Of a stretch of DNA of 40,503 bases, positions 2,848 through 35,400 are shown in pieces. A program made the translations under genes and the position numbers. This DNA is from Candidatus Bipolaricaulota bacterium (lineage in GTDB: Bacteria > Bipolaricaulota > Bipolaricaulia > RBG-16-55-9 > DRXL01). Each line of letters starts with the position of its first letter. Position 1 is the first letter of the stretch. Below the pieces are notes generated by a model that did not search any database, was not told the origin of the DNA, and saw only the letters and a program-made list of their open reading frames with translations. Location of the stretch: positions 1 to 40,503 of the forward strand of contig JAOAIA010000002.1 in the NCBI GenBank assembly GCA_026414955.1. Direction: 5' to 3'.

Positions 2848-3408
2848 ATGCCATACAACCCGGACAAACATCACCGCCGCAGCATCCGGCTGAAGGGATA
2901 TGATTATGCGCAGGCAGGCGCGTATTTCGTTACGGTCTGTACGCGCGATCGGGTATACTGGTTCGGCGAAGTGATAGACAATCAGATGCACCTGAATCAA
3001 GCTGGGCAGATCGTCCTGACCATGTGGGAGGAGTTGCCAGAACGGTTTCCTGAGATCGCTATAGATGCCCATGTGATCATGCCCAACCATGTGCACGGCA
3101 TCGTGTGGATTAAACCGGTAGGGGCGCAATTCATTGCGCCCTATACCTATAGGGGCGCGATGAATCGCGCCCCTACGACGTTGGGGGAAATCGTTCGGGC
3201 ATTCAAGGCGGTGACAACGCGCATCATACGGCAGACGATCTTTCCAGAATTCGCGTGGCAACGCAACTATTACGAACACATCATCCGCAGCGAGGAATCG
3301 CTAAATCGGATTCGTCAGTACATCCTTGATAACCCACAGCGATGGGCTTACGATAGAGAGAACCCGGCGGCGACAGCGCCAGAACCGGAGAATGCATGGG
3401 CATCATGA
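2848..3408 (+). CDS. IS200-like / REP-associated tyrosine transposase (RAYT, COG1943-type)
   Basis: HUH motif MPNHVHGIVWI and Tyr motif WQRNYYEHIIR. REP hairpins lie directly upstream and inside the gene. Confidence 0.85.
   Translation: MPYNPDKHHRRSIRLKGYDYAQAGAYFVTVCTRDRVYWFGEVIDNQMHLNQAGQIVLTMWEELPERFPEIAIDAHVIMPNHVHGIVWIKPVGAQFIAPYTYRGAMNRAPTTLGEIVRAFKAVTTRIIRQTIFPEFAWQRNYYEHIIRSEESLNRIRQYILDNPQRWAYDRENPAATAPEPENAWAS
3118..3176. repeat. Two REP hairpins inside the RAYT coding sequence (encoding VGAQFIAP...GAMNRAPT)
   Basis: GGGCGCAAT tc ATTGCGCCC at 3122-3141 and TAGGGGCGCGAT ga ATCGCGCCCCTA at 3150-3175. Confidence 0.85.
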
Positions 3409-4337
3409 CCGAACCCATCGGTATGCTCTCTCTCTCAACGTTCTCGATAGTCGCGTTCGATAGTGAGCTTGGGGAATTGGGAATCGCCGTGCAGTCTCGG
3501 GCGTTCCGCGCCGGCGCAGTCGTGCCCCACGCCAAAGCCAACGTCGGCGCGATTGCCACCCAAGCGATGGCCAATCTTTCTTACGGCCCTACAGGCTTGG
3601 CATTGCTGGAGCAAGGGCTGAGTGCCCACGAAGTCTTAGAGAGACTTTTAACTGAGGACGAGCATCGTGAGCACCGCCAAGTCGCGATCCTAGACATCCA
3701 CGGGCGCATCGCCCAGCACACGGGCAGAGAGTGCTTAGAATGGGCGGGGCATAAGGCTGGGAAGAATTGGGCCGCTCAGGGGAATATCTTGGCAAACGCA
3801 GAAGTCCTAGACGCGATGGGGGAAGCGTTTGAGCAAGCTGAAGGGCTGCTCGCTGAAAGACTCATGGCGGCGCTCGAAGCCGGGCAACGTGCCGGAGGGG
3901 ATCGTCGTGGGCAACAAGCCGCGGGACTTCTGGTCGTGCGCCCCAATGCGTACTTCGACGGCCCGTTCGATAGACTCGTAGACATTCGCGTTGATGACCA
4001 TCCAGAGCCGATTCAAGAGCTCAAGAGACTTTTGGCGATGGCGTTGCCGTCGGTGCATCTCTCAAATACTCGGCTCTTTTTGGAGCGCGGCCAGCTGGGG
4101 CGAGCGAAAGAGTTATTAGATCGGGCGCTGGGGGAACAGCCGGAGCAGCCGATCTTAAAACTCGCGGTGATCGGGTACTACGCACACACAGGGCAGAAAG
4201 CGCAAGCGTTGAGCGAACTCGAAGAGCTGCTTTCGAGCGCGGGGAGCGAGCGGACAAGCTTCGTGCGCTACGTGAAGACGAACGCGCTCTTTCGCCCGTT
4301 GCAGAACGACGACGAATTTCAAAGATTAGCTGCTTGA
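3396..4337 (+). CDS. DUF1028 family (Ntn-hydrolase-like) protein with TPR-like C-terminal extension
   Basis: [23 protein letters not shown]...GAIATQA...YGP..GL, QGNILA and [16 protein letters not shown] match the DUF1028 pattern. An alternative ATG at 3405 forms an ATGA overlap with the RAYT stop. Confidence 0.8.
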
Positions 4338-5483
4338 GAGAGCGACGCGCTCCGCGATCTCAGTTACAGAATCTCCCCCATACTTCTCTAAGAACGCATC
4401 AGCGAGCACCAAAGCCAAGATCGCCTCGCTGATCACCGACGCGGCGGGCACAGCACACACATCCGAACGCTCCACATGCGCCTTCACGGGCTTCTTGCTC
4501 TTCATATCTACAGACTCAAGCGGGCGCAACAGCGTCGAGAGCGGCTTCATCGCTACGCGCACAATAAGTCTTTCCCCGTTGGTAACACCGCCCTCTAACC
4601 CCCCGGCACGGTTCGTCTTCCGATAGTATCCCGAACCCTCATCGTAATAAATTTCGTCGTGACACTCTGACCCCCAACGGCTCGCGCTCTCGACCCCAAG
4701 CCCGATCTCGACAGCCTTCATCGCCGGTAGCGACGCCATCGCTTGAGAGATACGCCCGTCAAGCTTCCTGTCCCAATGCACATAGCTGCCCAGCCCCACC
4801 GGGATATTGTCGGCTATCACTTCAAAGACCCCGCCCACAGTGTTGCCCTCAGCTTTCGCTTGATCAATCCGCGCGATCATCTCTCTTTCGGCTTGCGTGT
4901 CGAGACAGCGCACCGGCGAAGCATCGGCGCGAGTATTCAGCTCTGCTAGGTCAAGCTCCGTGACGTCAACGCTTGCTTTTACAGAGTGAATCTGCACGAC
5001 GTGACTGGCGATCTGAATCCCGAAATACTCTAAAAGCTGTCGCGCGAGGGAGCCGAGGGCGACGCGCATCGCCGTCTCGCGGGCGCTGGCACGCTCTAAC
5101 ACATTGCGAATATCAGCGTGCCGATATTTCAAAGCTCCCGCAAGATCAGCATGGCCGGGCCGGGGGACGGTCACGGGGGAATATCGCTCTGGGGGAGGAT
5201 TCCACGGGTCCATGTGCTTGCCCCAGTTCTCCCAATCACGGTTCCAAATCACTAAAGCGATGGGGCTGCCCAGCGTAACGCCCGCGCGAATCCCGGAGAG
5301 AACTTCAATCTGGTCGTGCTCGATCTTCATGCGCCCGCCACGCCCGTAGCCTCCCTGACGGCGCGTAAGCTGGGCGTCAATCTTCTCTTTGCTGATGGGA
5401 AGCCCCGCAGGCATCCCTTCTAAAATGCCGACGAGCGCCCGCCCGTGCGACTCCCCTGCCGTCAGATAGCGCAGATGGCTCAT
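4326..5483 (-). CDS. aroC: Chorismate synthase
   Basis: N-terminus [17 protein letters not shown]; [16 protein letters not shown] overlap with the aroE stop. Confidence 0.97.
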
Positions 5484-6307
5484 AGCTGCTCCTCCAGAAA
5501 GCGTCGCAGAGTATCATACCCAATCTGAGCATCCAAATCTGATCTGCTCAGCCAAATCTTGAGCGATTCTATCGCTTGGTAGATGAGCATATCCAGCCCA
5601 TCTATAATTTGAGCACCACGCCGTTCTGCTTCGAGTAAGAGTTTAGTCTTAAGGGGATTGTACACGAGATCGTAGACGAGTGCGTTTTTAGGGAGACGTG
5701 CTGGCAGCGGCACGGGCAGCGCGTCGTCTTTCATTCCTACAGGTGTGGCGTTCACTATAAGATCAACACAATCCCACGGGAGTGCAGCGGGATTATTTTC
5801 AGCAGAGATCGTCTTGCTTGGGTGATGCTGACGCAGCTCTTCGGCGAGCTTCAGGGCACGCTCAGGAGTGCGATTATAGATCGAGAGCGCCGTGACGGTA
5901 TATTGCAAGAGCGCATGGGCGACGGCGCGCGCCGCTCCACCCGCCCCGACGAGAATCGCTTGCCTTGGCGCAAAACTGCGCGCTTGTAATGAGCGCAGAA
6001 AGCCCACGCTATCTGTGTTGTAGCCCACAAGCGCGCCGTGCTCGTTCTTCACAGTATTGACCGCGCCGATGAGCCGCGCTTCGGGGGAGAGTCTATCGAG
6101 ATAGCACAGAATGCGCTCCTTGTGGGGAATCGTCACGTTGAACCCCGCCAGCTCTGAATGCGCTGAGAGAAAGTCTTTCAGTTCGCCCTCTCGAACGCGA
6201 TACGCCCGATACTCTGCAACAATACTCAAGTTGTTCAGCACAAAGCTGTGCAACGCCGGGGAGAGCGAGTGCGCGATGGGGTCACCGATAATGCCGAGTT
6301 TGATCAT
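5480..6307 (-). CDS. aroE: Shikimate 5-dehydrogenase
   Basis: [24 protein letters not shown] and [13 protein letters not shown] overlaps at both ends. Confidence 0.95.
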
Positions 6308-7662
6308 GAGCGCACAAGAGATTCCAAATCTTCAAAGAATTCTGGGTACGAGATCTCGACCCACTCGGCCCCTTCGATGATCGTCTCGCCCTGGGCGATC
6401 AGCCCAGCAATAGCAAACGCCATCGCGATCCGATGATCGCCGAAGCTGTCGAGCACCGCGCCGTGGAGCTTCTGCGGGCCGGCAATGACCCAGCCGTCGG
6501 CACGCTCTTCAAGCTGCGCGCCCATTCTTTTCAGATTCTCGGTGACGGCACGGATACGATCCGTCTCTTTCACGCGCAGCTCGTGAGCGTCTTGAATGAC
6601 GGTTGTGCCGTGGGCTTGTGTAGCGCAGATTGCTAAAACGGGTAGCTCGTCAATCATCCTGGGGATGAGCGCGCCCCCGACGCGCACTGCGCGCAGTTCT
6701 GAAGACTTTACAGTGAGATCGCCCCACGGCTCATGAGCGATCTCGCGCTCGTTTTCTATAGCAATCTGCGCGCCCATCGCGCGCAACACATCTAAGAGAC
6801 CGGTGCGCGTCGGATTGATCCCCACGTCGGTGATAGTAATCTGCGCATCAGGCACGAGCGCCCCGACGACGAGAAAGAACGCTGCCGACGAAAAATCCCC
6901 CGGCACCATAAGAGCCTTTGCTTTGGGTCTTGCTCCGCCCTGCACGCTCACGGCTCCGTTGGAAATCTCTAAAGAGATTCCCAGATAGCGCAGCATTCGC
7001 TCGGAGTGATCGCGCGTGGGGCTGGGTTCGCTCACGGTCGTGACCCCCTTGGCGTGCAAACCCGCGAGCAGCAGGGCTGACTTCACTTGCGAACTCGCGA
7101 TGGGAAGCTCGTAGCGAATCCCGCGCAGCTTCTGCCCGATAATCTTTAACGGCGCGTAGCCGTTATCGCTTTCGATCTTTGCGCCCATCTGGGTCAGGGG
7201 ATCAATGACGCGCTGCATTGGGCGCTTGCGCAAGCTCGCGTCGCCCGTGATAGTCGCTGCGAAATTCTGACCGGCCAAAAGCCCCGCAAGCAGTCTCATC
7301 GTCGTTCCGGAGTTGCCCGCGTCGAGCACGCGCGCGGGAGGAGAGAAGCCCTCGGCGTTGTGAACGAAGACCTCTCCCCTAGCCTCTCCTGACCTAACCC
7401 CCACTCCCTTTCCTAAGGGGTTAGGGGAGAGGGCAGGGAGCAGGAGGGTAGGCCTGATCACCACGCCGAGGGCTTGGAGGGAGAGGGCAGTATTCCGCAC
7501 ATCGTGCGCCGGCGAGAGATTCTCTATACGCACCGGGCCGTCGGCGAGCGACCCACACAGAAGCGCCCGATGCGAGATAGACTTATCCCCCGGCACGCGC
7601 AGCACGCCCTTCACGCTGCGCCCGGGCTTAATAACTCTGCGCATAGCTCTGTGTGCTCCCAT
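6304..7662 (-). CDS. aroA: 3-phosphoshikimate 1-carboxyvinyltransferase (EPSP synthase) carrying an in-frame repeat-derived insertion
   Basis: VPGDKSISHRALL and LDAGNSGTTMRLLAG. An alternative start ATG at 7644 (MRRVIKPG...) is equally plausible. Confidence 0.95.
   Translation of the reverse strand: MGAHRAMRRVIKPGRSVKGVLRVPGDKSISHRALLCGSLADGPVRIENLSPAHDVRNTALSLQALGVVIRPTLLLPALSPNPLGKGVGVRSGEARGEVFVHNAEGFSPPARVLDAGNSGTTMRLLAGLLAGQNFAATITGDASLRKRPMQRVIDPLTQMGAKIESDNGYAPLKIIGQKLRGIRYELPIASSQVKSALLLAGLHAKGVTTVSEPSPTRDHSERMLRYLGISLEISNGAVSVQGGARPKAKALMVPGDFSSAAFFLVVGALVPDAQITITDVGINPTRTGLLDVLRAMGAQIAIENEREIAHEPWGDLTVKSSELRAVRVGGALIPRMIDELPVLAICATQAHGTTVIQDAHELRVKETDRIRAVTENLKRMGAQLEERADGWVIAGPQKLHGAVLDSFGDHRIAMAFAIAGLIAQGETIIEGAEWVEISYPEFFEDLESLVRS
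7372..7446. repeat. GC-rich nested palindrome (CTCTCCTGACCTAACCCC...GGGGTTAGGGGAGAG) in frame within aroA
   Basis: Encodes LSPNPLGKGVGVRSGEARG between conserved AroA blocks. Same style as the repeats at 12031, 13125, 29410 and 30194. Confidence 0.8.
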
Positions 7663-8683
7663 AATGCCGCACGAGTCGTCGGCGTACCGCCTGGGCGACC
7701 AAGTCCAGCTCGCTCATCAAGAGCTGAAACTGCTCTGGGAGGAGCGCCTGCGGGCCGTCACAGAGGGCTGTATCAGGATCGTGATGGATTTCGACGATCA
7801 AGCCGTCGGCCCCGGCGGCGACCCCCGCCAACGCCAAGGGAATGACTTTGGTGCGCACGCCCGCGGCGTGACTGGGGTCTACGATCACGGGCAGATGCGA
7901 CAGCTCCTTCACAACCGAAACAGCCCCAACGTCGAGCGTGAACCGCAAGTGATCTGAAAACGTGCGAATCCCGCGCTCACAGAGAATGACGTTCTTGTTT
8001 CCCCCGTCCAGCACATACTCGGCAGCCATGAGCCACTCTTCGAGCGTCGCGGCGATGCCGCGCTTGAGCAGGACCGGCTTGTCACAGCGCCCCACTGCTT
8101 TCAACAGCGCGAAGTTCTGCATGTTCCGCGCCCCGATCTGTAAGACATCAGCGTACTGAGCGACAGTATCTACGTGCGTTGTATCTAAGACTTCGGTGAC
8201 GATATACAGCCCGTGCTGATCGGCAGCGGCGCGCAGCAATTTCAAGCCCGCTTCGCCCAGCCCTTGGAACGAGTACGGGCTGGTGCGGGGCTTGAACGCC
8301 CCACCGCGCATAAGACGAACCCCCTGCTGTGCCACAAGCCGCGCACACCGATAGATTTGTTCTTCACTCTCGACTGAGCACGGCCCAGCGATGATCGCCA
8401 ACTCTGGGCCTCCGATCTGCACGCCCCCCACAGACACAATCGTGCTGTCGGGGTTAAATTCTCGACTGGCTAATTTGTACGGCTTGGTGATCTCGACGAC
8501 CCGTTCGACGCCGTCGAGCACTGCTAGTCTTTGTGGATCAATGCCGCGCTTGTCCCCGATAGCCCCTAAGATAGTGCGCATGACCCCGTCTACGCGATGG
8601 ACCTTGAACCCCAAGCGTTCGAGTTCGTGGCTGGCTTGCTGGATCTGTCTTTCGCTGGCCCCAACTTTCATGATGACCACCAT
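7628..8683 (-). CDS. 3-deoxy-7-phosphoheptulonate (DAHP) synthase, type I-beta, with N-terminal ferredoxin/ACT-like regulatory domain
   Basis: Resembles Thermotoga-type DAHPS: PYKLASREF, IIAGPCSVES, GGAFKPRTSPYSFQGLG, KRG and ILCERGIRTF. Start trimmed to the ATG at 8683 (MVVIMKVG), preceded by GGAGG. The upstream part of the 576-aa tracked ORF overlaps uvrB and two promoters. Confidence 0.93.
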   Translation of the reverse strand: MVVIMKVGASERQIQQASHELERLGFKVHRVDGVMRTILGAIGDKRGIDPQRLAVLDGVERVVEITKPYKLASREFNPDSTIVSVGGVQIGGPELAIIAGPCSVESEEQIYRCARLVAQQGVRLMRGGAFKPRTSPYSFQGLGEAGLKLLRAAADQHGLYIVTEVLDTTHVDTVAQYADVLQIGARNMQNFALLKAVGRCDKPVLLKRGIAATLEEWLMAAEYVLDGGNKNVILCERGIRTFSDHLRFTLDVGAVSVVKELSHLPVIVDPSHAAGVRTKVIPLALAGVAAGADGLIVEIHHDPDTALCDGPQALLPEQFQLLMSELDLVAQAVRRRLVRHYGSTQSYAQSY

Positions 8684-8766
8684 AGCACACCTCCACAGCA
8701 CAAAGAGCGTGGTCTTTGCAGGATGAGCTGCGCCGGAACAGTCTGAGTTATGAAGGAGAGTAGTAT

Positions 8767-8850
8767 TTAGGGCCGGAAGGCCCCAAAGAAGAAGGAGGCG
8801 ACAAAGAACGAGAGCGAAGACCATTGTGCGGTGAAGCCTTTGTGCAACAT
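8767..8850 (-). CDS. Candidate leader peptide [27 protein letters not shown] (27 aa; 7 Phe, 1 Trp) in the aro operon leader
   Basis: AGGAGG (8859-8864) lies 8 nt upstream of the ATG at 8850. Stop TAA at 8767-8769. The uORF lies between the predicted promoter and the DAHPS start. Confidence 0.45.
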
Positions 8851-8881
8851 ACCTATCGCCTCCTGTTTGCGAAGTGGCTGT

Positions 8882-8910
8882 ATCATAGCACGATTTTTCT
8901 CGGTTGTCAA
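8882..8910 (-). promoter_or_regulatory. Sigma70-type promoter TTGACA-17-TATGAT for the aro operon
   Basis: On the plus strand, tgtcaa at 8905-8910 and atcata at 8882-8887. This predicts a leader of about 190 nt. Confidence 0.6.
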
Positions 8911-8933
8911 GGGAGGGGGGGTCTATCTTAGTT

Positions 8934-8961
8934 TTGTCTTTTGCCCGCACCTGAGTATAAT
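8934..8961 (+). promoter_or_regulatory. Promoter TTGTCT-16-TATAAT for uvrB; the -10 ends 10 nt before the ATG and there is no SD
   Basis: TTGTCT at 8934-8939, TATAAT at 8956-8961, ATG at 8972. Confidence 0.55.
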
Positions 8962-8971
8962 CACTACGACG

Positions 8972-10972
8972 ATGAGCACCCTGACCGATACGAGAGAATT
9001 CCAGCTTGTTTCGCCGTTTGCGCCGCGCGGCGACCAGCCGAAAGCCATCAAAGAACTGACGGAAGGACTGCGCGCCGGCTTGCAGCATCAGACACTGCTG
9101 GGCGTCACCGGCTCCGGCAAGACGTTCACTATTGCGCACGTCATCCAGAACGTTCAAAAACCGACTCTCGTCATCGCCCATAACAAGACGCTCGCGGCCC
9201 AGCTCTGCAACGAGTTTCGCGAATTTTTCCCGCACAACGCCGTACACTACTTCGTCAGTTATTATGACTACTATCAGCCCGAAGCGTATATCCCCCAGAC
9301 GGATACGTACATCGAGAAAGACGCTTCGATTAACGACGAAATAGACCGGCTGCGCCATGCAGCAACCAGCGCGCTCTTAGAACGCAGAGACGTGATCATC
9401 GTCGCGAGCGTCTCGTGCATCTATGGGCTGGGCACGCCCGGCGAGTACGCAGCTATGACCTTAGCGTTGCGCACGGGCGCGACCATCTCGCGCGACGAGA
9501 TCTTACACAAACTTGTCGAACTTCAGTACGAGCGCAACGAGATCGGCTTCGGTCGGGGGACTTTTCGCGCCAAGGGCGACACGATTGAAGTCATCCCGGC
9601 TTATAGCGAGAACGCCATCAGAATCGAACTCTTCGGCGACGAGATCGAGCGCATCTCCGAGCTGGACGCGCTCACGGGCAAGCGCCTGCGCGACTTAGAT
9701 TTCACGGTGGTCTACCCCGCAACGCACTGGGTCACCGGGAGAGAGAAGCTGGAGCGTGCCATTGAGTCTATTCGCGCCGAACTCGAAGAGCGCCTCACCG
9801 AGCTGCACCGTGCGGGGAAGCTCTTGGAAGCGCAGCGTCTGGAGCAACGCACCAAGTACGATCTAGAGATGCTGTGCGAGCTGGGCTACTGTTCTGGAAT
9901 CGAGAACTATTCGCGGCACTTGGACGGGCGCAGGCCCGGCGAGCCGCCCTGCACGCTGATAGACTACTTCCCCAAAGATTTCCTGATGGTCATTGACGAA
10001 TCTCACCAGACGATCCCCCAGATTCGCGGCATGTACAACGGGGATCGCTCGCGCAAGGAAGTCTTAATAGAATACGGCTTTCGGCTGCCGTCGGCGCTCG
10101 ACAACCGTCCGTTGAAGTTTGAGGAGTTCGAGCGCAAGATGAATCAAGTTATTTATGTCTCCGCGACGCCAGGGCCGTATGAGCGTGCCAAGAGCCAGAA
10201 GATCGTGGAGCAGATCATTCGGCCTACGGGTCTTGTTGACCCCGAAGTCGTCGTGCGCCCGGTGCAGGGACAGATTGACGATCTGATTGACGAGATCAGA
10301 GAAGTGACGAGCCGTAGTGAGCGCGTCTTGGTGACGACGCTGACCAAGAAGATGGCTGAAGACTTAACAGAATATCTGACAGAGCTTGGGATTAAGGCGC
10401 AGTACTTGCACTCCGAGATCGAAACACTCGATCGTGTGGATATTCTCTATGATCTGCGCGTGGGAGAATTTGACGTCTTGGTCGGGGTGAACTTGTTACG
10501 CGAGGGGCTTGATCTTCCAGAAGTCTCGCTCGTGGCGATCTTAGACGCCGACAAAGAAGGGTTCTTACGCTCGGAGACTTCGCTCATTCAGACGATTGGG
10601 CGAGCGGCGCGCAACGTGCGCGGCAGAGTCATTCTTTACGCAGACAACGTGACCGGCTCGATGAAGCGGGCAATCGCTGAGACGCAGCGTCGTAGAAAAC
10701 TTCAGCTTGAGTACAACGAGCGGCACGGGATCACGCCGGAGACGGTGAAGAAAGCGATCAGAGAGTTTATGCCGGAGCTTGCTCGCGAGAGCAAAGAGAA
10801 GAGAGCCAAGAAGAAGCTGACGGTGAAGACACCAGCGGAGTTAGCTGATCTCATCAAAGAGCTAGAGCAAGAGATGTACGCTGCTGCCAAGCGTCTCGAA
10901 TTCGAGAAGGCTGCGAAGCTGCGCGATGAGATCAAAGAGTTGAGACAAGAGCTGATTGGGGTTTCGAGCTGA
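8972..10972 (+). CDS. uvrB: Excinuclease ABC subunit B
   Basis: [19 protein letters not shown], the helicase motifs, and the C-terminal UVR domain ([16 protein letters not shown]). Start trimmed to the ATG at 8972 ([16 protein letters not shown]). Confidence 0.97.
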
Positions 10973-24143: not shown

Positions 24144-24962
24144 TTATTTAAGCTGAAATCGCACCTGCCCAGCAACTAAGACGTCGCCACCAAAATCAAT
24201 GATTACAAGAGCTAAGTACGTCCCCGGCGTCAGCTTCTCTGTGACCGGGATCTCCAAGCGCTGCTTGCCGCCAGGGAGCACGGCCATATCTTCACCCTTC
24301 TTCTGGACGACGATCTCGCCCTTGGTGTTGACGATGCGTAGCTGTGTCTTTGCGGTCTGGAATGTCGTCCCAGTGTTCTCGTACTCGACGACGATGCGCA
24401 AGGGCTTGTCGCGCTCCGGCAGAAGCGCTTGGACGCTGAGAATCCGCCCGCGATTGACAGCGTTCGTCGGGTCGGTGTGCCGAATCTTGACGATAAACTG
24501 CTCAGCCGTCCCAATGGTGACTGGGATGGACGGCTGCTGCCCCGATGGGGGCGGCGGTTGAGCGCCTGACGACGGTGCTGGGCTTGTTATAGCCAGAGCT
24601 GCCCAGTGTGGCCCACGCTCCGTCGCGGGAATCTCGACCTTGAACGTGATGACTTGCTTCTGCTTGGGTGCAAGCGTAAACTGCGCTAGCGTAAACGATA
24701 AGAACTTGGCGAGCGAGCGCGGATGCGTCCCAGGGTTCAGCAAAACCAAGCCACCCTCGATATTTCTATCATAGTCTTTGAGTTCGACGGTAAACTCGCG
24801 TGGCTGATTGCTGTTGTTGATGACTTCAAACCCGCCGGTGAAGCTCCCGCCAGGGGGCAGATTTATATCTATACTGAGCGTAGAGATCCCGATCTGGCCT
24901 TGCGCCAGCAGCCCGCTTGCTAATATGAGCACGAAACTCAAGAGAATCTTTCGCATGAACAC
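24144..24962 (-). CDS. Secreted two-Ig-domain protein, chaperone-like or DUF916/DUF3324-like
   Basis: Signal peptide MRKILLSFVLILASGLLAQG. Two beta-sandwich-like halves joined by a Pro/Gly linker. Tracked GTG start at 24962, alternative ATG at 24956. Confidence 0.7.
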   Translation of the reverse strand: MFMRKILLSFVLILASGLLAQGQIGISTLSIDINLPPGGSFTGGFEVINNSNQPREFTVELKDYDRNIEGGLVLLNPGTHPRSLAKFLSFTLAQFTLAPKQKQVITFKVEIPATERGPHWAALAITSPAPSSGAQPPPPSGQQPSIPVTIGTAEQFIVKIRHTDPTNAVNRGRILSVQALLPERDKPLRIVVEYENTGTTFQTAKTQLRIVNTKGEIVVQKKGEDMAVLPGGKQRLEIPVTEKLTPGTYLALVIIDFGGDVLVAGQVRFQLK

Positions 24963-24972
24963 TCACGCTCCT

Positions 24973-25905
24973 TTACGGACAGGGCACGCCTTGGTCGTCG
25001 ATCGAGTAATCAAGATTAAACTGATATGGACCGATCTTGCCGTCGCCAAAGCTTGCTAAGAGTACACGTTGATCAACAGTCACGGTGATGCCTCCGGCGG
25101 GCGTAGGAGCCCCCTGGCCGACTACGACGCTTGAGCCGCCAGGTTGCCAATTGCCTAGATAATCTCTGATCTGCAGAGCATTAGCAGTGGGATCATCGGC
25201 GCCAGGGGGATAGCTATAAGCATTGACCTTGGCGCAGACGCGCCAGTTGCGCGTCGCGACGACTTGGAGCGTTGTCTGGCCGATGAACGGCACGATGCCG
25301 TTCTCAACTTGGGAAGCGCTCGTGACGTTGGCCGAGAGCGCTGTACCAGAGATCACCGAGACAGTCATCACGTCTTGGTATTCGATGGTGATGCGCACGG
25401 CGTCAACATACGCAGTGTTTGTAGAGCCGAGCTTGGACAAGCGCACCCCGAAGTTCGCACTATTGATATCAGCAGCAGTCCATGAAGTCCCCCACAGATC
25501 TGTAGGGCCGCCTACAGTACGGAAAGCGCTTGTGCTGCAGCCGGTCTGCCCCGCGATGCCGTAGATATCTTGAGTATTGCCCACGGGAGACCCGCCCTTG
25601 AGCAAGCGCACGCGGACCCCTTCATTTGACGTGGTCGCGGCCATGTCGACTTCCACCGTGATGCCCTGGATGACGGCTGCATCGGGGATGGTGAAACCAA
25701 AGCCTGTCAGATCGAGAGAGCCGCCGCCAGCTCCAGTGCGTTCGGCACATGTGTTGTCTGGAGTTCCTATAGCAGCGCTGGCGTTAGACCACCCTGTGGC
25801 TGCATACGTGCTAGCATAGTTTGGCCCTTGGGAGACGGCTTGCACTAATAGACTCCCGAGTGTGACAGCTAGGACAAGAGTCCCTATAGCTCGGAAGAGG
25901 TTCAT
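24973..25905 (-). CDS. 310-aa secreted protein; its C-terminal half is distantly related to the three small paralogs (candidate tip/adaptor subunit)
   Basis: Signal peptide. NWRVCAKVN compares with TWGCNVDS in the paralogs. The C-terminal GPYQFNLDYSIDD compares with GVINYSVTDSTP. Confidence 0.7.
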   Translation of the reverse strand: MNLFRAIGTLVLAVTLGSLLVQAVSQGPNYASTYAATGWSNASAAIGTPDNTCAERTGAGGGSLDLTGFGFTIPDAAVIQGITVEVDMAATTSNEGVRVRLLKGGSPVGNTQDIYGIAGQTGCSTSAFRTVGGPTDLWGTSWTAADINSANFGVRLSKLGSTNTAYVDAVRITIEYQDVMTVSVISGTALSANVTSASQVENGIVPFIGQTTLQVVATRNWRVCAKVNAYSYPPGADDPTANALQIRDYLGNWQPGGSSVVVGQGAPTPAGGITVTVDQRVLLASFGDGKIGPYQFNLDYSIDDQGVPCP

Positions 25906-25914
25906 CGTTGTCTC

Positions 25915-26442
25915 CTACGGGGTTATGTCCGTCGTCGTGAAGAGAATGACGCCGATATAAAATCCTGGCAGTTTGCTGACATCCCAGGATCGAATATCTA
26001 AGAAGATCTCGCCCATAAAGTCTGCGCCATCTAAGCCTGCGGTGTTCTGTCCGGAGCCGCGACGATTCTGGGGATCGGGCTCCGACAGCGAAGTCCTATC
26101 GGTACACTCGCCGAAGTCATCGGCAAAATCACAGTCGGTGAGAAAGTCCTCTGGGCCAGCGTCGAAGATATTCGTATCTATAGTCACGATCGACGAATTG
26201 AGTCTATACGGCGTGAGCGCGTCGATATTGACGTGCCAGTCGCCGATCTTGAACGGCTGTGGCCCTTCGACCTCTTGCAAGGTGATCTCTGCCGTGATAG
26301 AAGGGATCACGGCGGCAATAAAGAGCGGCTGAGGGATGACGAGCGTCACGCGCACGTTCTGGCTCGTCTGGGCTAGGCTCCCCCAGCCGAGCAAGGCTAT
26401 CACTAGCGCCATAGCTCCAGCGGCCTTCGCCCTTTTCTTCAT
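25915..26442 (-). CDS. Small secreted protein, paralog 3 of 3 (2 Cys)
   Basis: Aligns along its length with the 26482 and 27072 products: QPFKIGDWHVNIDALT, DFLTDC...GEC, NTAGLDGADF and the C-terminal GVILFTTTDITP. Confidence 0.8.
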   Translation of the reverse strand: MKKRAKAAGAMALVIALLGWGSLAQTSQNVRVTLVIPQPLFIAAVIPSITAEITLQEVEGPQPFKIGDWHVNIDALTPYRLNSSIVTIDTNIFDAGPEDFLTDCDFADDFGECTDRTSLSEPDPQNRRGSGQNTAGLDGADFMGEIFLDIRSWDVSKLPGFYIGVILFTTTDITP

Positions 26443-26481
26443 AGAGCTCTCCCATCCCCAAATATAGCGAAAGGCCGCGAG

Positions 26482-27036
26482 CTAGGGAGTAGTATCCGTC
26501 ACTGTGTAGGTAATGATTCCGGTCACGTAGACCGGGAGCTGCGAAGACATGACGTCCCAGCCCCCAGGGCCAACCCCCATGTTCACGAAGACGTCCCCAG
26601 CAAAGTCTGCCCCGTTTGTCCCAGCGGTGTTGTAGCCTATGCCGCGCCGGGTGTTGGGGTCGACGTCCCCAAGGGTCAGAGACGAGTTGGGCGCGCACGC
26701 CCCATAGTCGTCAGCTGTATCGCAATCAGCGGTGAAGTCTGAGGTATCAGCGTTGACGACAAAGGGCGCAGAGAACGACGTGAACTGAGAGTTAAGTCTA
26801 TACTGCGTTACGGCATCGACATTACAGCCCCAGTCGCCGATATCAATGGGCTGTGGCGCTTCAATATCGCTCTGTAAGACGACGTAATAAATATCTCCAG
26901 GCTGATCCGGCGGCACACAGTCCAAGTAGAGCGACTGTCCAATCTCGATTGTGACGTTTTGTTGAGCGACAAGCCCCGCTGAGAGGGAGAGCCCCAATAC
27001 TCCACCAAGCACCGCGACGAGCAGCTTTCTGATCAT
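26482..27036 (-). CDS. Small secreted protein, paralog 2 of 3 (4 Cys)
   Basis: QSLYLDC, IGDWGCNVDAVT, FTADC..GAC, NTAGTNGADF and the C-terminal GIITYTVTDTTP. SD GGAGG lies upstream. Confidence 0.8.
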   Translation of the reverse strand: MIRKLLVAVLGGVLGLSLSAGLVAQQNVTIEIGQSLYLDCVPPDQPGDIYYVVLQSDIEAPQPIDIGDWGCNVDAVTQYRLNSQFTSFSAPFVVNADTSDFTADCDTADDYGACAPNSSLTLGDVDPNTRRGIGYNTAGTNGADFAGDVFVNMGVGPGGWDVMSSQLPVYVTGIITYTVTDTTP

Positions 27037-27071
27037 GATGCAGGCCTCCTTTGCAAAATTTTTGTCGTCTG

Positions 27072-27596
27072 CTATGGCGTTGAGTCCGTGACTGAGTAGT
27101 TAATCACTCCGCTGACGCTGCGGCTGGGCGGGATAGCTCGGACATCCCAGTCGCTTACGTTGAGTCGGACGTTTCCACTGAAGTCAGCGCCTGGGGTTCC
27201 GGCGGTGTTGCCACCGCTACCTAGGGTGATCGGCCCGAACGTACCCCCTGGGCCGCAGCTAGGGCTGCCACCACCGCTTGCTGACGTGCATGTTTCGGAG
27301 AAGTCGTCCGCGCTCGCGTTGACAATGTCAGCTGTAGATGTCATGGTCATATTCGCGCTGAGCTCAAAGTTCGTCAATGAATCGACGTTGCAGCCCCATG
27401 TCCCAATAGTGAACGGTTGAGTCCCTTCGATGTCAGCCTGGGTAACGGTGTAATTGATCGGTAGGGAAGCAGAGCAGTCCAGATAGAGGGACTGATTGAC
27501 GTTGATTGTGACGGTCTGCGATGTCTGGGAGAGACCTCCAACCCAACCTAGCGACAGGGCGAGCAAGAAGACTGTGACAGGCTTGATATAGCGCAT
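27072..27596 (-). CDS. Small secreted protein, paralog 1 of 3 (4 Cys); first gene after the consensus promoter
   Basis: QSLYLDC, IGTWGCNVDSLT, FSETC..PSC, NTAGTPGADF and the C-terminal GVINYSVTDSTP. SD AGGAGG lies 6 nt upstream of the ATG. Confidence 0.8.
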   Translation of the reverse strand: MRYIKPVTVFLLALSLGWVGGLSQTSQTVTINVNQSLYLDCSASLPINYTVTQADIEGTQPFTIGTWGCNVDSLTNFELSANMTMTSTADIVNASADDFSETCTSASGGGSPSCGPGGTFGPITLGSGGNTAGTPGADFSGNVRLNVSDWDVRAIPPSRSVSGVINYSVTDSTP

Positions 27597-27639
27597 GAGC
27601 TACCTCCTTCGGCCAATGTTTTTGTTGTTTCAGGTTAGG

Positions 27640-27668
27640 ATTATAACATAAAAGAGGGGGATTGTCAA
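27640..27668 (-). promoter_or_regulatory. Perfect consensus sigma70 promoter TTGACA-17-TATAAT for the surface operon
   Basis: On the plus strand, tgtcaa at 27663-27668 and attata at 27640-27645. It is followed by an A/C-rich ~37-nt leader and AGGAGG. Confidence 0.75.
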
Positions 27669-27755
27669 GGAGGGATAGCAGGGGGACATACAATGTAATG
27701 TATATCACTTATAGTTCTTATATTTTAGTCTAATGACACTCAATTCTGGGATCTT

Positions 27756-28178
27756 CTACCGGTACTCGATCTTGAAGTCCTCCCAGAAGTTCAGGGTATA
27801 GATTGGATTTCCAGAGCGCGGGTCGGTGCCGGTTCGGATGAGCTTCCCCTCAAAGACGAGATTGCGCCGAGCCAGGAAGCACTCGGGGCTCCCCCCTTGC
27901 TTGAGCGCCACGATCAATCGTACTGGCCTGGAGAAGTCTATACGCTGAGCCACCCCTTGGGGAATGACGAACTCCGCACGATCGCTGGACTCCACTATGG
28001 CATCGAAGTTCCCGATCGCCTCGTTCCCCTGGAAGGCCACGATGATCAACGTAGCCCTGCGACAGAGCATATCAATCTCTTCGATGCGAATCGTATGCCC
28101 GGGGATGACCTTGGGGCAACCCGTTAGGATCACGGCCAGGATCGGAATCAAAAACAAAACATAGCGTTTTGCACCCAT
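27756..28178 (-). CDS. Small lipoprotein of unknown function
   Basis: Lipobox LTGC after a hydrophobic signal (MGAKRYVLFLIPILAVILTGC). SD GGAGGAGG lies upstream. Confidence 0.7.
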   Translation of the reverse strand: MGAKRYVLFLIPILAVILTGCPKVIPGHTIRIEEIDMLCRRATLIIVAFQGNEAIGNFDAIVESSDRAEFVIPQGVAQRIDFSRPVRLIVALKQGGSPECFLARRNLVFEGKLIRTGTDPRSGNPIYTLNFWEDFKIEYR

Positions 28179-28250: not shown

Positions 28251-30170
28251 CTATCTCGCCCGCGCGATCTCTTCGAGCGCCTGAGGGTTCTCTAAGTTCG
28301 ACAGATCCCCCGGCTCCTGCCCCAGCGCCACCGCGCGAATCGCTCGTCGGAGAATCTTCGCATTGCGCGTCTTGGGCAGCTCCCGCACAAATTTAATCTG
28401 CTCCGGCACAAACGACTTCCCCAGAGCTTCGATCACCCGCTCGCGTAGCTCCCTGCGCAAAGCGTCACTGGGTTCATAGCCGGGCTTCACAACAACGTAG
28501 CACCAAATCGCCTCACCCTTCAGCTCATGAGGCACCCCAATCGCCGCCGACTCCGCCACCGCCGGATGGCCCACTAAGAGAGACTCGATCTCCGCTGGCC
28601 CCAAGCGCTTCCCCGCGATCTTAATCGTATCGTCACTGCGCCCGTGCAAGTACCAAAGACCGTCTTCGACTTTAGACGCCCAGTCCCCATGCACCCAGAC
28701 GTTGGGCCAGCGCGCCCAGTAGGTCTGAAGGTATCTGTCGGGGTCTCTCCAGATGCCGCGCGTCATCCCCGGCCAAGGCTTCTTGCAAACTAACTCCCCC
28801 ACGCCCCCGCGCAACGGCTTGCCCTCGGCGTCGAAGACGTCTACGGCCATCCCCAACGCCGGCCCAACGAGCGCACAAGGCTTCAACGGCGTGATGGGCA
28901 AGGGCGACAAGAAACACGCCCCGACTTCTGTGCCCCCAGAGAGATTAATAATCGGACAGCGTTTGTCTCCGACATGCTCAAACAGCCACCACCACGGCGC
29001 GGGGTTCCACGGCTCCCCCGTCGAAGCCAAGATCCTCAAGCTGCTCAGATCGTGTCTTCTGACCGGGTCCTCTCCGAACTTCATCAAGGCGCGAATCAGC
29101 GTGGGCGAGACCCCTAAAATAGAGATTCTATGGCGCTCGACCATCGCCCAGAGCCGATCAGCGCTTGGGTAATCCGGCGCGCCCTCGTAGAGAAAGACCG
29201 TGCCCCCAAGAGCCAGCCCGCCCACGACCTCCCACGGCCCCATGATCCACCCCATATCGGTCACCCAGTAGAGGACATCTCGATCTTGCAGGTCTACTTG
29301 GTGGGCCACTTCTTGGGCGATCTTCACTAAAAATCCCCCGTGGACGTGCACCGCGCCCTTGGGGCGGCCCGTCGTCCCAGACGTATAGATAATCATGAAC
29401 GGGTCTTCGGAATCTAACCTCTCCCCCAGCCCCTCCCCGACTGGTAGGGGCAGGGGAACCCTGTCCCTACTTCCCCTTAGGAAAGGGGATCGAGGGGATA
29501 GGTCCATCACTTCTTTAACCGTGGGGCAGAGCTTGGCGGCTTCGCGAGCGATCTGTCCCATCTCGATGCGAGTGCCCTTGCGCGAGAAGCTCTCGGCAGT
29601 CAGCAAGAGCTTCGCTTCGCAATCGTTGAGCCGGGCAGCCACGGCCTGAGCGCCGAAGCCCGAAAAGATCGGGGTAAAGATCGCGCCAAGCTTGGCGCAG
29701 GCCATCATCGCGATCACCGTCTCGGGGGCCATCGGCATAAAGATTCCCACGCGGTCGCCCTTGGCGATGCCCAACTCTTTGAGAGTATGCGCCAAGCCAT
29801 TGGTCTGCTCATAGAGTTCTCGGTAGGTGACCCGACGGACGGAGCCGTCTTCCCCCTCCCAGATGAGCGCGAGCTTCTCCGGGCGGGTGTGAGCGTGCTT
29901 ATCTACGCAGTTATGCGCGATATTGATCTTGCCCCCAACGAACCACTTGGCCCACGCGATCCCCTCAGAGACGTCCAAGACTCGCTTATACGGCTCAAAG
30001 AACTCGATCTCTAAATCTTTGACGACGGCGTCCCAGAACCATTCGATCTCTTCTGTGGAGCGCCGCACCAGCTCTGTATAGTCTCTGATCTGGTGCTTCT
30101 GCATGAAGCGCCAGATGTTGCTGCGCTCAATATATTCTTTCGTTGGGGTCCAGGCGAATTTGTGCGTCAT
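28251..30170 (-). CDS. acs: AMP-forming acetyl/acyl-CoA synthetase carrying an in-frame composite repeat insertion
   Basis: IIYTSGTTGRPKG, the adenylation motifs, and the C-terminal LPKTRNAKILRR. Confidence 0.9.
   Translation of the reverse strand: MTHKFAWTPTKEYIERSNIWRFMQKHQIRDYTELVRRSTEEIEWFWDAVVKDLEIEFFEPYKRVLDVSEGIAWAKWFVGGKINIAHNCVDKHAHTRPEKLALIWEGEDGSVRRVTYRELYEQTNGLAHTLKELGIAKGDRVGIFMPMAPETVIAMMACAKLGAIFTPIFSGFGAQAVAARLNDCEAKLLLTAESFSRKGTRIEMGQIAREAAKLCPTVKEVMDLSPRSPFLRGSRDRVPLPLPVGEGLGERLDSEDPFMIIYTSGTTGRPKGAVHVHGGFLVKIAQEVAHQVDLQDRDVLYWVTDMGWIMGPWEVVGGLALGGTVFLYEGAPDYPSADRLWAMVERHRISILGVSPTLIRALMKFGEDPVRRHDLSSLRILASTGEPWNPAPWWWLFEHVGDKRCPIINLSGGTEVGACFLSPLPITPLKPCALVGPALGMAVDVFDAEGKPLRGGVGELVCKKPWPGMTRGIWRDPDRYLQTYWARWPNVWVHGDWASKVEDGLWYLHGRSDDTIKIAGKRLGPAEIESLLVGHPAVAESAAIGVPHELKGEAIWCYVVVKPGYEPSDALRRELRERVIEALGKSFVPEQIKFVRELPKTRNAKILRRAIRAVALGQEPGDLSNLENPQALEEIARAR
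29410..29500. repeat. Composite palindromic repeat (three hairpin modules, including GTAGGGGCAGGGGAACCCTGTCCCTAC) in frame within acs
   Basis: Encodes DLSPRSPFLRGSRDRVPLPLPVGEGLGERL just upstream of the AMP-binding motif. The central hairpin resembles the one at 30224-30251. Confidence 0.8.
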
Positions 30171-30193
30171 ACAGCTTACCTCCTTCTGATGAG

Positions 30194-30272
30194 GCCCTCA
30201 CCCGCCCTGGGGGCACCCCTCTCGTAGGGCAGGGTCCGAACCTGCCCCTACACGAGGGCCGGGGGTGAGGGC
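30194..30272. repeat. Nested palindrome (GCCCTCACCC...GTAGGGCAGG..CCTGCCCCTAC...GGGTGAGGGC) between glmS and acs; possible terminator or insulator
   Basis: The outer 10-bp arms (30194-30203 / 30263-30272) are perfect; the inner REP-like hairpin is imperfect. It starts 3 nt after the glmS stop. No U-tract follows. Confidence 0.75.
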
Positions 30273-30274
30273 GT

Positions 30275-32101
30275 TCACTCCACTGTCACGCTTTTCGCTA
30301 GATTTCTCGGCTGATCTATGTCGGTGCCGCGCAAGTCTGCTATGTGATAGGCAAAGAGCTGCAACGGCACGACGAACAATAACGGCGCCAGCCAGCGCGA
30401 GCTTGGGGGAATCTCTATAATAAAGTCCGAGACGCGCTCGATCTCTTTATTGATCTGATCCGTGACGGTGATGACGATGCCCCGGCGGGCTTTGACTTCC
30501 TCGATATTGGAAAAGACTTTCTCGTAGACGCTCTCTTTCGTCACGAGCACGACCGTGGGCATCTCGGCATCAATGAGCGCGATCGGGCCGTGCTTGAGTT
30601 CTCCCGCAGCGTAGCCCTCAGCATGAATATACGAGATCTCTTTGAGCTTGAGCGCCCCTTCGAGCGCGATGGGATAGAGCAAATCTCTGCCCAGAAAGAG
30701 AAAGTGCTCTTTCTCATAAAAAACCTGGGCGAGCCGCACGATCTCGCGCTCTTGTTGTAAGAGCTTCTCGATGAGCGCCGGCCCGCGCACTAAGCTCTCC
30801 AATGCTGGGCGGGTCTGCTCTGGGGCGAGCCAGCCCCGAGATTGGGCGATAAAGAATCCCAACAGATCGAGTGCGGCCAACTGCGCGAGCAACGCTTTTG
30901 TCGAAGCGACCCCAATCTCCGGGCCGGCATGGGTGTAGAGGGTCGCATCGGACTCGCGCGTCAGCGTCGCCCCGACCACGTTGACTATCGAGATGACGGA
31001 AGCCCCCCGTGCGCGCGCCTCCCGCACCGCTCCGAGAGTGTCTGCGGTCTCCCCAGACTGCGAGATCGCGATGACTAAAGTATTTTCGTCCAGGTAGGGC
31101 TTGCTGTAGCGAAACTCACTCGCCAGCTCGACGGCAAGGGGGACTCTAAAGAACTCGCGCCATAAGTACTTCGCTGTCAATGCGGCGTAGTACGCCGTCC
31201 CCATAGCTACGCAGTAGACCATCTGGGCTTTGTGAATCTTCTCAGTAAGTTTTTGAAGCTCAGGGAGCACGATCTTCCCCGTAGCGAGTTCGTAGCGATT
31301 CTGCAGGGTGTTGGCGAGGGCGTGGGGCTGCTCATGGATCTCCTTGAGCATGAAATGCTTATAGCCCTGCTTCTGCGCGGTGACCACGTCCCATTCGATT
31401 CGCTGGGGTGCTCGAGTGATACGCCGCCCCTCAAAGTCACAAAGCTCAACCCCGTCTCGGCGCAGAACTCCCAGCTCGCCGTCGTTGAGGAAAACCATCG
31501 TTTTGGTGAAGGCGAGCAGCGCCGGGATATCAGAGGCCGCGAAGGTTTCGTGCTCTCCCAACCCTAAGACGAGCGGGCTGCCCTGACGCGCGACTATCAC
31601 TTCGTCGGGCGAATCTGTCGCGACAACAGCGAGCGCGTAGGCGCCGCGCAGCGGGCGGAGCGCCTCCCGCACCGCCTCCAGAAGATTTGTGCCGTCATAA
31701 CGCTCTTCGATGAGATGGGCGATCACTTCCGAGTCGGTCTGCGACAGGAAGATATGCCCACGCGCTTGCAGTTCTTCTTTGAAGGGCAGATAGTTCTCGA
31801 TAATCCCGTTATGGATGACCGCGATCTTCTTCTGGCAATCGCAATGGGGGTGGGCGTTCTGATCTGTCGGAGGGCCGTGGGTAGCCCAGCGCGTATGCCC
31901 TAAGCCCACGGTGGCGCGTGAGGCTTTCAGAACCCGCATGAGATCGCTGACCTTACCAGCACGCTTCTCCAGATAGAGACTCTTGTTCTCGACGAGGGCG
32001 ATGCCAGCGGAATCGTATCCTCGATACTCTAATTTCTGTAACGCCGCAAGCAGCAGATCTTGGGCGGGGCGCTGCCCCACGTAGCCCACGATCCCACACA
32101 T
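30275..32101 (-). CDS. glmS: Glutamine--fructose-6-phosphate aminotransferase
   Basis: MCGIVGYVG N-terminus, SIS domains, and C-terminal ...AKSVTVE. SD AAGGAGG lies 7 nt upstream. Confidence 0.97.
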   Translation of the reverse strand: MCGIVGYVGQRPAQDLLLAALQKLEYRGYDSAGIALVENKSLYLEKRAGKVSDLMRVLKASRATVGLGHTRWATHGPPTDQNAHPHCDCQKKIAVIHNGIIENYLPFKEELQARGHIFLSQTDSEVIAHLIEERYDGTNLLEAVREALRPLRGAYALAVVATDSPDEVIVARQGSPLVLGLGEHETFAASDIPALLAFTKTMVFLNDGELGVLRRDGVELCDFEGRRITRAPQRIEWDVVTAQKQGYKHFMLKEIHEQPHALANTLQNRYELATGKIVLPELQKLTEKIHKAQMVYCVAMGTAYYAALTAKYLWREFFRVPLAVELASEFRYSKPYLDENTLVIAISQSGETADTLGAVREARARGASVISIVNVVGATLTRESDATLYTHAGPEIGVASTKALLAQLAALDLLGFFIAQSRGWLAPEQTRPALESLVRGPALIEKLLQQEREIVRLAQVFYEKEHFLFLGRDLLYPIALEGALKLKEISYIHAEGYAAGELKHGPIALIDAEMPTVVLVTKESVYEKVFSNIEEVKARRGIVITVTDQINKEIERVSDFIIEIPPSSRWLAPLLFVVPLQLFAYHIADLRGTDIDQPRNLAKSVTVE

Positions 32102-32120
32102 AAGCGCGCCTCCTTGATCC

Positions 32121-32190: not shown

Positions 32191-32285
32191 CACCCGATGC
32201 CGCAGCAGCCGGTCAGTAGTATAATAATTTGGTGAGATCTTGACAAGCCCCAGGGGGCTTGCCCGTGAGTGTAATCTGTGCTATT

Positions 32286-35384: not shown

Positions 35385-35400
35385 CACAAGACAGTTGCAA

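Follow-up and report, generated by a model that had tools for sequence, protein, structure and literature searches.

The 40,503-nt stretch of Candidatus Bipolaricaulota DNA analysed here, called the window throughout, carries an operon for the common aromatic pathway in which the genes for DAHP synthase (DAHPS), aroA, aroE and aroC follow one another, and upstream of the DAHPS gene lies a leader containing a short upstream open reading frame (uORF) rich in phenylalanine codons. Bipolaricaulota (Acetothermia, OP1) form a deep-branching, almost uncultured phylum. The features of leader and operon, with the protein genes assigned through Pfam, are as follows.

8910-8882, minus strand: sigma-70-type promoter, matching the consensus at 11 of 12 positions
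8864-8855, minus strand: Shine-Dalgarno (SD) sequence of the uORF, AGGAGG (8864-8859), with the following CGAU; also the 5' arm of helix P1
8850-8767, minus strand: candidate leader-peptide uORF, 27 codons and a TAA stop (8769-8767), with 7 Phe and 1 Trp
8802-8793, minus strand: anti-SD tract GUCGCCUCCU, containing CCUCC and spanning codons V-A-S and the first base of the FFF run; also the 3' arm of P1
8787-8766, minus strand: hairpin P2, UUUGGGGCC-UUCC-GGCCCUAAA, from the last FFF codon to the stop region
8772-8744, minus strand: G-less tract of C, U and A, 29 nt, starting inside the 3' arm of P2
8747-8735, minus strand: conserved box CUCAGACUGUUCC, consensus YCAGWCUGYUCC in 11 close leaders
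8694-8690, minus strand: DAHPS SD, GGAGG, with the start codon ATG at 8683-8681; AGGAGGU and ATGGT are kept in all leaders
8683-7628, minus strand: DAHPS, 351 residues, a ferredoxin-like N-domain followed by DAHP_synth_1
7662-6304, minus strand: aroA (EPSP synthase)
6307-5480, minus strand: aroE (shikimate dehydrogenase)
5483-4326, minus strand: aroC (chorismate synthase)
4326-8683, minus strand: the whole DAHPS-aroA-aroE-aroC operon, with the same gene order in relatives

Promoter and upstream open reading frame

The promoter consists of a -35 box TTGACA (8910-8905), a 17-nt spacer with an extended TG (8890-8889) in it, and a -10 box TATGAT (8887-8882), and so bears out the TTGACA-17-TATGAT arrangement proposed in a first-pass annotation of this DNA. 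The leader region scanned for promoters and terminators (8400-9200, 800 nt) holds two promoter-like sites against 0.3 expected, and transcription is predicted to start near 8875. Eight nucleotides separate the AGGAGG from the uORF start codon (ATG, 8850), and the frame itself reads as the annotation had described it, with its end, placed there about 80 nt before the DAHPS start, lying 83 nt from the DAHPS ATG at 8683.

The Phe codons stand at 8835-8833, 8808-8803, 8793-8785 (the FFF run) and 8778-8776. With five Phe in ten residues the peptide holds the densest Phe cluster among the window's 1502 open segments, all six frames counted, and the probability of finding at least seven Phe in 27 random codons is about 2e-6, two figures that together confirm the observation of an enriched frame. 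The uORF motif is single-copy in the window and elsewhere occurs only at the related DAHPS loci.

Conservation among relatives

Contigs from relatives were gathered through close DAHPS proteins and later through the leader peptides themselves; these are too short for a direct search, and the profile search used artificially extended open reading frames. A UniRef match of the DAHPS is 92% identical and belongs to Candidatus Bipolaricaulota, further relatives are graded from 64 to 89%, and scans of genome and metagenome collections with DAHPS proteins returned only genes of other phyla at 50-61% identity. The set that was compared comprises 13 distinct Bipolaricaulota leaders, namely the window and 12 relatives, whose DAHPS proteins are 69-92% identical to that of the window; loci are designated by L numbers, the close leaders number 11, and the leaders of L175 and L176 (DAHPS 69-72% identical) are distant.

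All 13 leaders have their own promoter, an SD and an SD-proximal AUG that opens the Phe frame despite indels, and all 13 keep a Phe-rich uORF. The promoter boxes of the relatives are TTGACA with TGCTATGAT or CATTATAAT/TATAAT regardless of the gene upstream, which is a divergent uvrB in L161 and L162, unrelated genes in L163, and a co-directional pair for chorismate mutase and prephenate dehydratase in L165, L168, L169-174 and L177-181, while the contig of L166 ends upstream of the leader. The uORF SD segment GGAGGCGA is invariant across the close leaders.

The peptides themselves vary considerably. The uORFs are 25, 26, 27, 29, 31 or 33 codons long, and gene callers had already called them in nine protein clusters, which were found through the extended-frame profile search and add five peptide variants; across the 13 leaders and the nine clusters each peptide holds four to seven Phe, and the earlier description of a Phe-rich leader peptide of the DAHPS operon holds in the leaders compared. 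Examples from relatives include two peptides of 27 residues and one of 25, as well as MLQTGLAIKAKWSSLSFSIAFFFFGASQP, MLQMGLDSHKEKLYRAVPFSIASFFFGAPRP and MRHISLLRKLSHTNTNIFIASFFFWAFRP. The N-terminal half drifts freely and the residues encoded by the loop of P2 vary (F/S/P and R/G/Q), while the Phe run is constant. Compared with L168, the uORF of L181 contains two separate in-frame insertions, ATC and TTT, within the conserved core. The distant peptides MAKTKLVEQLNHSFAFSFFSYFWPPRANTSL (L175) and MTLKQLYAKNPFLAFFFPIFWPPRGA (L176) have diverged in sequence yet keep periodic Phe codons (SFAFSFFSYFW, PFLAFFFPIFW). Constant Phe codons in a peptide whose N-terminal half and loop-encoded residues drift are the signature of a leader peptide, rather than of a functional protein or an incidental frame.

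The uORF is thus best read as a ribosome-mediated leader-peptide attenuator that would sense charged tRNA-Phe on behalf of the common aromatic pathway operon, and from the sequence comparison we put the probability of this at about 0.75. A short frame with its own ribosome-binding site lies in the leader of a biosynthetic operon, and its enrichment in codons for an end product is kept while the rest of the peptide drifts; the intrinsic terminator between leader frame and first gene that marks the classical type is absent. The two helices P1 and P2 flank the Phe codons, and for these neither a conserved alternative partner nor a downstream hairpin was found.

That the element is no sensor at all, and is instead a conserved RNA bound by a protein or ligand with an incidental frame, or else encodes a small functional hydrophobic protein, seems very improbable. 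The P1 3' arm, the linker and P2 are strongly conserved at the nucleotide level, and the peptide is indeed hydrophobic and is annotated by gene callers as a hypothetical protein. Yet neither the differences among at least five length classes nor the two in-frame 3-nt insertions disrupt the Phe frame, the distant leaders retain Phe codons and not nucleotide sequence, the N-terminal half is free to vary, as are the residues encoded by the loop, and the element is single-copy, always lies directly upstream of DAHPS and matches no Rfam family.

Secondary structure of the leader

The first-pass annotation had noticed that the uORF SD is complementary to a stretch just before the FFF run, and this complementarity is conserved as helix P1, in which AGGAGGCGAU (8864-8855) pairs with GUCGCCUCCU (8802-8793) through 10 core pairs that extend to 13. 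The GGGCC-ttcc-GGCCC hairpin that it placed at the uORF stop corresponds to the core of P2 (8783-8770), which abuts the stop, with the TAA lying within the extended 3' arm; the FFF codons form an 8-nt linker between P1 and P2. These are the dominant helices in the fold of the window leader and also appear in an RNAalifold consensus of eight leaders. In a 12-sequence alignment, which was used to count pairs and covariation, 89.8% of the cells assigned to these helices are paired, as against 41-62% for controls with slid partners.

Compensatory changes occur at three pairs, all of them in P2: C-G to U-A in L166, G-C to C-G in L175 and L176, and G.U to U-A in L175. The bases of the P2 loop vary freely, which accounts for the variation of residues 25-26. 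In L176 a variant uORF SD, GGAAGC (in AAGGAAGC), faces a variant tract, GCUUUCUU. A further helix proposed in the first-pass annotation, between GCACAAAG in the early uORF codons and CUUUGUGC just upstream of the DAHPS SD, did not share in this conservation: both segments are present, the pairing is absent from the minimum free energy fold and from the relatives, and its occurrence is at chance level, since an 8-mer match of this kind within about 200 nt is expected some 0.3 times by our own estimate.

Downstream of P2 the RNA has a different character. A G-less run of 23-35 nt directly follows P2 in 13 of 13 leaders, while G-less runs of 24 nt or more number just five over both strands of the window. 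The tract belongs to a C-rich, G-poor, unstructured spacer that extends to the DAHPS SD, with C at 0.35 and G at 0.16 (C/G 1.5-3.4 across leaders), and the G content of the spacer falls in the lowest 1% of the 70-nt windows of the stretch. No conserved structure or hairpin was found in the spacer among the leaders compared, and the conserved box CUCAGACUGUUCC has no conserved pairing partner.

Several candidate pairings were tried and set aside. The best partner for the 3' arm of P2, acting as a "region 3", was DAHPS codons 6-9 (GUUGGGGCC); this match, present in 7 of 13 leaders, tracks synonymous drift, and its effect on regulation would have the wrong sign. A long-range pairing of a 5' CAYCUC motif with the DAHPS SD was suggested by RNAalifold, and in single-sequence ensembles it appeared in L165 alone, apart from a weak trace in L170.

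The strong C-terminal conservation of the peptide raises the question of whether the nascent chain itself could be the sensor, in the manner of TnaC, with free Phe in the exit tunnel causing IASFFFGAxRP-stop to stall at the stop codon. In its favour, the close leaders scarcely differ in the C-terminal half, whose Arg-Pro-stop ending is shared with TnaC, and Pro-stop is a poor termination context (PMC3082878). Against this, residues 25 and 26 vary, tracking the P2 loop; L175 and L176 end in PPRANTSL and PPRGA; and P1 and P2 account for the nucleotide identity, synonymous positions included. A ribosome stalled at high Phe would moreover be expected to induce, not repress, a biosynthetic operon, and we give this mechanism hardly any weight.

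Absence of a terminator

No hairpin with a U tract was found between 8400 and 9200, in keeping with the first-pass statement that the leader lacks a U-tract terminator. Rfam gave no relevant match at E up to 10 between 8300 and 9300, Phe_leader included, and across the entire window and 20 related loci only tRNA passed the gathering score. A T-box reading was rejected, as the leader has neither an Rfam match nor a UGGN bulge.

An unconventional intrinsic terminator or pause, located at P1 (followed by UCUUCUUU) or at P2 (followed by the A/U-rich UAAAUACU) and prevented by the uORF ribosome, appears improbable. It is true that P1, GC-rich and 10-13 bp long, directly precedes six U in eight bases and that P2 precedes an A/U-rich octamer, that P2 is followed by an almost unchanging UAA(A/U)CAC, also in L175 and L176 with their stop codons at other places, and that other gene-end hairpins of the window, such as that at 34230-34205, also have no 3' U tract. 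The loop of P1, at 55-70 nt, is however far above that of known terminator hairpins, and the U-rich tract behind P1 would be transcribed before the ribosome reads the Phe codons, leaving no Phe specificity. A terminator at P2 would be melted by fast and stalled ribosomes alike, which gives the wrong logic or none.

Possible transmission of stalling to the operon

If the uORF senses charged tRNA-Phe, a ribosome would, when Phe-tRNA is scarce, park with the FFF run in its A or P site and cover both the CCUCC tract and the 5' arm of P2, keeping P1 and P2 open; when Phe-tRNA is plentiful it would run off at the UAA and free the tract and P2. Closure of P1 after run-off would then stop further translation of the uORF. 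Where the uORF SD is held by translating ribosomes, the vacated CCUCC could instead mask the DAHPS SD through a duplex of 7-8 bp, and a ribosome stalled on the tract would prevent that masking. In addition, the naked G-less spacer may be subject to factor-dependent polarity that strengthens the OFF state.

The precedent of the mycobacterial poly-Cys leaders, described below, leads us to rank translational masking first; Rho-type termination comes second. By analogy with those leaders the output may be translational, with the CCUCC masking the DAHPS SD, an assignment that we hold tentatively and at less than even odds. The first-pass annotation had pointed out that the CCTCC can also pair with the DAHPS SD, and it can: the duplex reaches -12.7 to -13.5 kcal/mol across leaders (-13.5 in the window) and beats 94-100% of shuffled SD regions in 9 of 13. 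The tract that a stalled ribosome would cover is thus complementary to the SD of the regulated gene. The helix of the same tract with the uORF SD has -21 to -24 kcal/mol (-21.2 in the window).

The effect of ribosomes was modelled by equilibrium folding with ribosome masks. The probability that the DAHPS SD is unpaired is 0.29 in the vacant leader, 0.31 with one stalled ribosome, 0.30 with the uORF fully covered and 0.27 with the entire 5' part masked, and the inhibitory duplex is not found as a stable structure of the vacant leader. The control by SD sequestration that the first-pass annotation had favoured over classical termination therefore stands as a possible duplex, while equilibrium folding, with 0.29 against 0.31, lends it no support. 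Masking shows up in the model only once the uORF SD is kept occupied, as by an initiating ribosome: 7 of 13 leaders, the window not among them, then have the tract as the chief partner of their DAHPS SD, and under this condition stalling raises the accessibility of the DAHPS SD from 0.14 to 0.27 on average.

A number of results weigh against the leader as a Phe-sensing attenuator with this output, and they are best considered together. Accessibility of the DAHPS SD is unchanged across the four masked folding states; in the window the folds never assign the tract to the DAHPS SD as its partner; and P1 is about 8 kcal/mol stronger than the duplex of tract and DAHPS SD, so that the vacant leader forms P1. 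The covariation in L176 favours P1 as the selected helix, and in the 12-sequence alignment the changes within P1 are all of the G-C to G-U type, none of them compensatory. The 3' arm of P2 has no conserved alternative partner, and the leader offers no alternation of terminator and antiterminator. The close leaders, finally, are closely interrelated, so that much of their nucleotide identity may be shared ancestry.

The pairing of the tract with the leader's own SD could possibly serve to limit the leader to one round of translation. A bolder scheme is a terminator-less Phe attenuator of three states, in which one pyrimidine tract beside the hungry codons would serve two SDs. Formation of P1 would switch the sensor off after a fast ribosome, the duplex of tract and DAHPS SD, or exposure of the tract as one half of a Rho loading site, would silence the operon, and a tract covered by a stalled ribosome would leave the operon on. 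As a whole this scheme is doubtful.

The same Phe-sensing uORF might have factor-dependent, Rho-type premature termination as its primary output, which we consider rather unlikely. The pyrimidine-rich Phe tract and the G-less tract flanking P2 would here form a bipartite site like rutA-boxB-rutB of lambda tR1; a stalled ribosome would occlude the 5' half, and run-off would expose the site and stop transcription before DAHPS or early in it. The ranking of this output rests on the G-less, C-rich tract, which persists in every leader although its sequence drifts, and a C-rich, G-poor, unstructured tract beside the leader frame is what Rho-type leaders have. The low G content and lack of conserved structure of the whole spacer point the same way, as does the window at large, where U-tract terminators are not enriched and gene-end hairpins mostly have no U tract. 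Rho-dependent leader-peptide systems are known in tnaC, mgtL and speFL, and Rho has been proposed to act in actinobacterial Cys leaders that lack terminators (PMC1262725). We have discounted the ranking because the spacer would be mostly naked in the stalled state: a ribosome at FFF leaves about 80 nt of C-rich spacer uncovered, and occlusion would be partial at best. Sequestration of the spacer by a 5' segment freed on stalling was tried as a remedy and rejected, since it was seen in the window only and was inconsistent across leaders (change in unpaired fraction 0.00-0.12). In the vacant state, moreover, P1 hides part of the proposed 5' half. No rho gene was found among the genes of the window.

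Gene context and other features of the window

The gene divergent from the aro leader on its upstream side is uvrB (Pfam), which starts at 8972. A promoter-like site for it, TTGTCT-16-TATAAT, lies at 8934-8961 on the plus strand, back to back with the aro promoter and with the two -35 boxes 23 bp apart, and the same arrangement is seen in L161 and L162. The -10 box of this site ends 10 nt before the ATG at 8972, so that the uvrB mRNA may be leaderless or nearly so.

The DAHPS frame remains open for 225 codons upstream of the real start, giving a mechanical open reading frame of 576 residues (7628-9358, minus strand) that crosses the entire leader and reaches the antisense of uvrB. A gene caller could therefore add a false N-terminal extension to DAHPS that engulfs the leader, and annotation of DAHPS calls for caution on this account. 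In relatives, aroA is called in two pieces or with a late start (L166, 1475-1738; L169 and L172, 2525-3786; L170 and L171, 2541-2795), which points to frameshifts or assembly errors in these metagenome contigs.

Two contigs from different sequencing runs, L164 and L167, both begin, at position 1, with CCCTGGTAACGATCTCTTGGCGC, which lies about 40 nt upstream of the leader -35 box and has related positions near 2737 in L163 and near 97 in L166. It seems that promoter, leader and operon travel together, possibly beside a repeat boundary. Some 900 nt past the last gene of the aro operon, the open reading frame 2848-3408 on the plus strand has a weak match to IS200-like Y1 transposases, with a whole-protein score above the Pfam cut-off and no single domain stretch that passes it; it is possibly a degraded mobile-element gene.

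Over the whole window, 26 hairpins with U tracts were found against about 32 expected from shuffles, which is no enrichment, and 29 sigma-70-like promoters against about 14 expected. Strong GC hairpins without a 3' U tract stand at several gene ends (for instance 34205-34230, 30170-30275 and 32101-32213), among them CUUUGCCAGCC-UCC-GGCUGGCAAAG between tRNA-Gly and a diacylglycerol-kinase-like gene. As terminators are unenriched and gene-end hairpins lack U tracts, the lineage may use other modes of termination, and the pattern suggests a non-canonical style of termination. Both tRNA genes of this region are on the plus strand, tRNA-Gly(CCC) at 34116-34190 and tRNA-Leu(CAG) at 35300-35385, with near-consensus promoter-like sites at 34078-34106, just upstream of the former, and at 35177-35205, some 95 nt upstream of the latter. 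Six co-directional open reading frames of 140-310 residues without a Pfam match occupy 24144-28178 on the minus strand; promoters lie at 27668-27640 and 28242-28214, a site matching 12 of 12 consensus positions precedes the frame 27072-27596, and the 70 nt upstream of that frame have a G content of 0.09. The window contains no other amino acid operon with which the leader could be compared.

Comparison with known systems

Attenuation by leader peptides is textbook knowledge in Proteobacteria and is documented in Actinobacteria and Firmicutes. In the literature searched, in which papers linking Bipolaricaulota and the shikimate pathway were judged by title and abstract, no leader-peptide attenuation was found for Bipolaricaulota or Acetothermia. 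Among 160 loci of other phyla carrying the same type of DAHPS we found a second family of aromatic leaders (L043, L059, L065, L076, L084, L098, L108, L133, L140 and L150), labelled Syntrophaceae, Smithella or Syntrophobacterales or belonging to unlabelled metagenome contigs. These leaders lie about 110-150 nt upstream of the DAHPS start and encode peptides that mix F, Y and W and share a conserved VCPSLRR tail (MDRAMNVKVNFNGYWFYTYFTSVCLSLRRTH is one); behind them comes the classical antiterminator and terminator layout of GC hairpins with U tracts, one or often two in tandem, and the family has no Rfam match. Taken with the Bipolaricaulota leader they indicate that control of the shikimate entry enzyme through aromatic leader peptides occurs widely, the Bipolaricaulota version being exceptional in having no terminator.

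A C-rich, G-poor, unstructured tract after a uORF, on which the position of a ribosome decides the fate of the transcript, is familiar from tnaC-tnaAB, mgtL-mgtA and speFL-speF. In tnaC and speFL the nascent chain detects a free ligand and the ribosome halts at the stop codon or close to it; in the Bipolaricaulota leader the expected signal is instead a set of hungry Phe codons, some 20 nt 5' of the tract. Translational attenuators that mask a downstream SD are represented by the erm and cat leaders.

The classical Phe leaders pheL-pheA and pheM-pheST of Escherichia coli (PMC3082878) resemble the Bipolaricaulota leader in their short frame with internal runs of Phe codons ahead of Phe-related biosynthesis, and in a Pro codon beside the stop whose C residues lie within a GC hairpin. 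They control pheA or pheST through alternative 1:2, 2:3 and 3:4 hairpins and an intrinsic terminator (PMC3082878); the Bipolaricaulota leader, in contrast, precedes the common shikimate operon, has no terminator and pairs its tract with its own SD. In aroR-aroF of Corynebacterium glutamicum (Neshat et al. 2014, summarised in PMC11802643; first noted in PMC4046766) a Phe-Tyr-Phe leader peptide likewise stands immediately ahead of a DAHP synthase operon, and Phe limitation induces expression by stalling the ribosome. The aroR leader is described as a transcription attenuator, while the Bipolaricaulota leader has no terminator. The Bipolaricaulota peptide is also longer, with four to seven Phe as against Phe-Tyr-Phe, and comes from another phylum.

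For the output step a parallel is found in the mycobacterial poly-Cys small open reading frames such as Ms5788A, in which the codon tract masks a downstream SD and a stalled ribosome prevents the masking, as verified experimentally (bioRxiv 10.1101/834739). That lineage too is poor in intrinsic terminators, and a tract near the 3' end of the small frame is complementary to the downstream SD (bioRxiv 10.1101/834739). The Ms5788A frame is leaderless, so that it has no competing SD and the inhibitory duplex dominates the fold (bioRxiv 10.1101/834739), whereas the Bipolaricaulota tract pairs some 8 kcal/mol better with the SD of the uORF, and predicted folds give no stable masking of the DAHPS SD. 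The actinobacterial LEU element and Cys leaders are likewise conserved leader peptides without terminators (PMC1262725); the regulatory codons of the LEU element form a base stem with the SD of the structural gene leuA (PMC1262725), while in Bipolaricaulota the strongest pairing is with the leader's own SD.

The leader adds a concrete conserved regulatory RNA to the barely studied Bipolaricaulota, and flags a family of "hypothetical proteins" of 27-33 residues as a regulatory frame. It also offers a compact test case of how ribosome stalling may be transmitted in lineages without canonical intrinsic terminators, and the scheme of one tract serving two SDs would, if true, be a design principle for leader peptides of deep-branching, terminator-poor bacteria that is unlike the trp/phe paradigm. 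The Bipolaricaulota element is not a member, by sequence or structure, of any curated family. Phe leader peptides are known, also before DAHP synthase; what is unusual is the combination of a tract that pairs with the leader's own SD, a leader free of terminators and a G-less tract behind the uORF.

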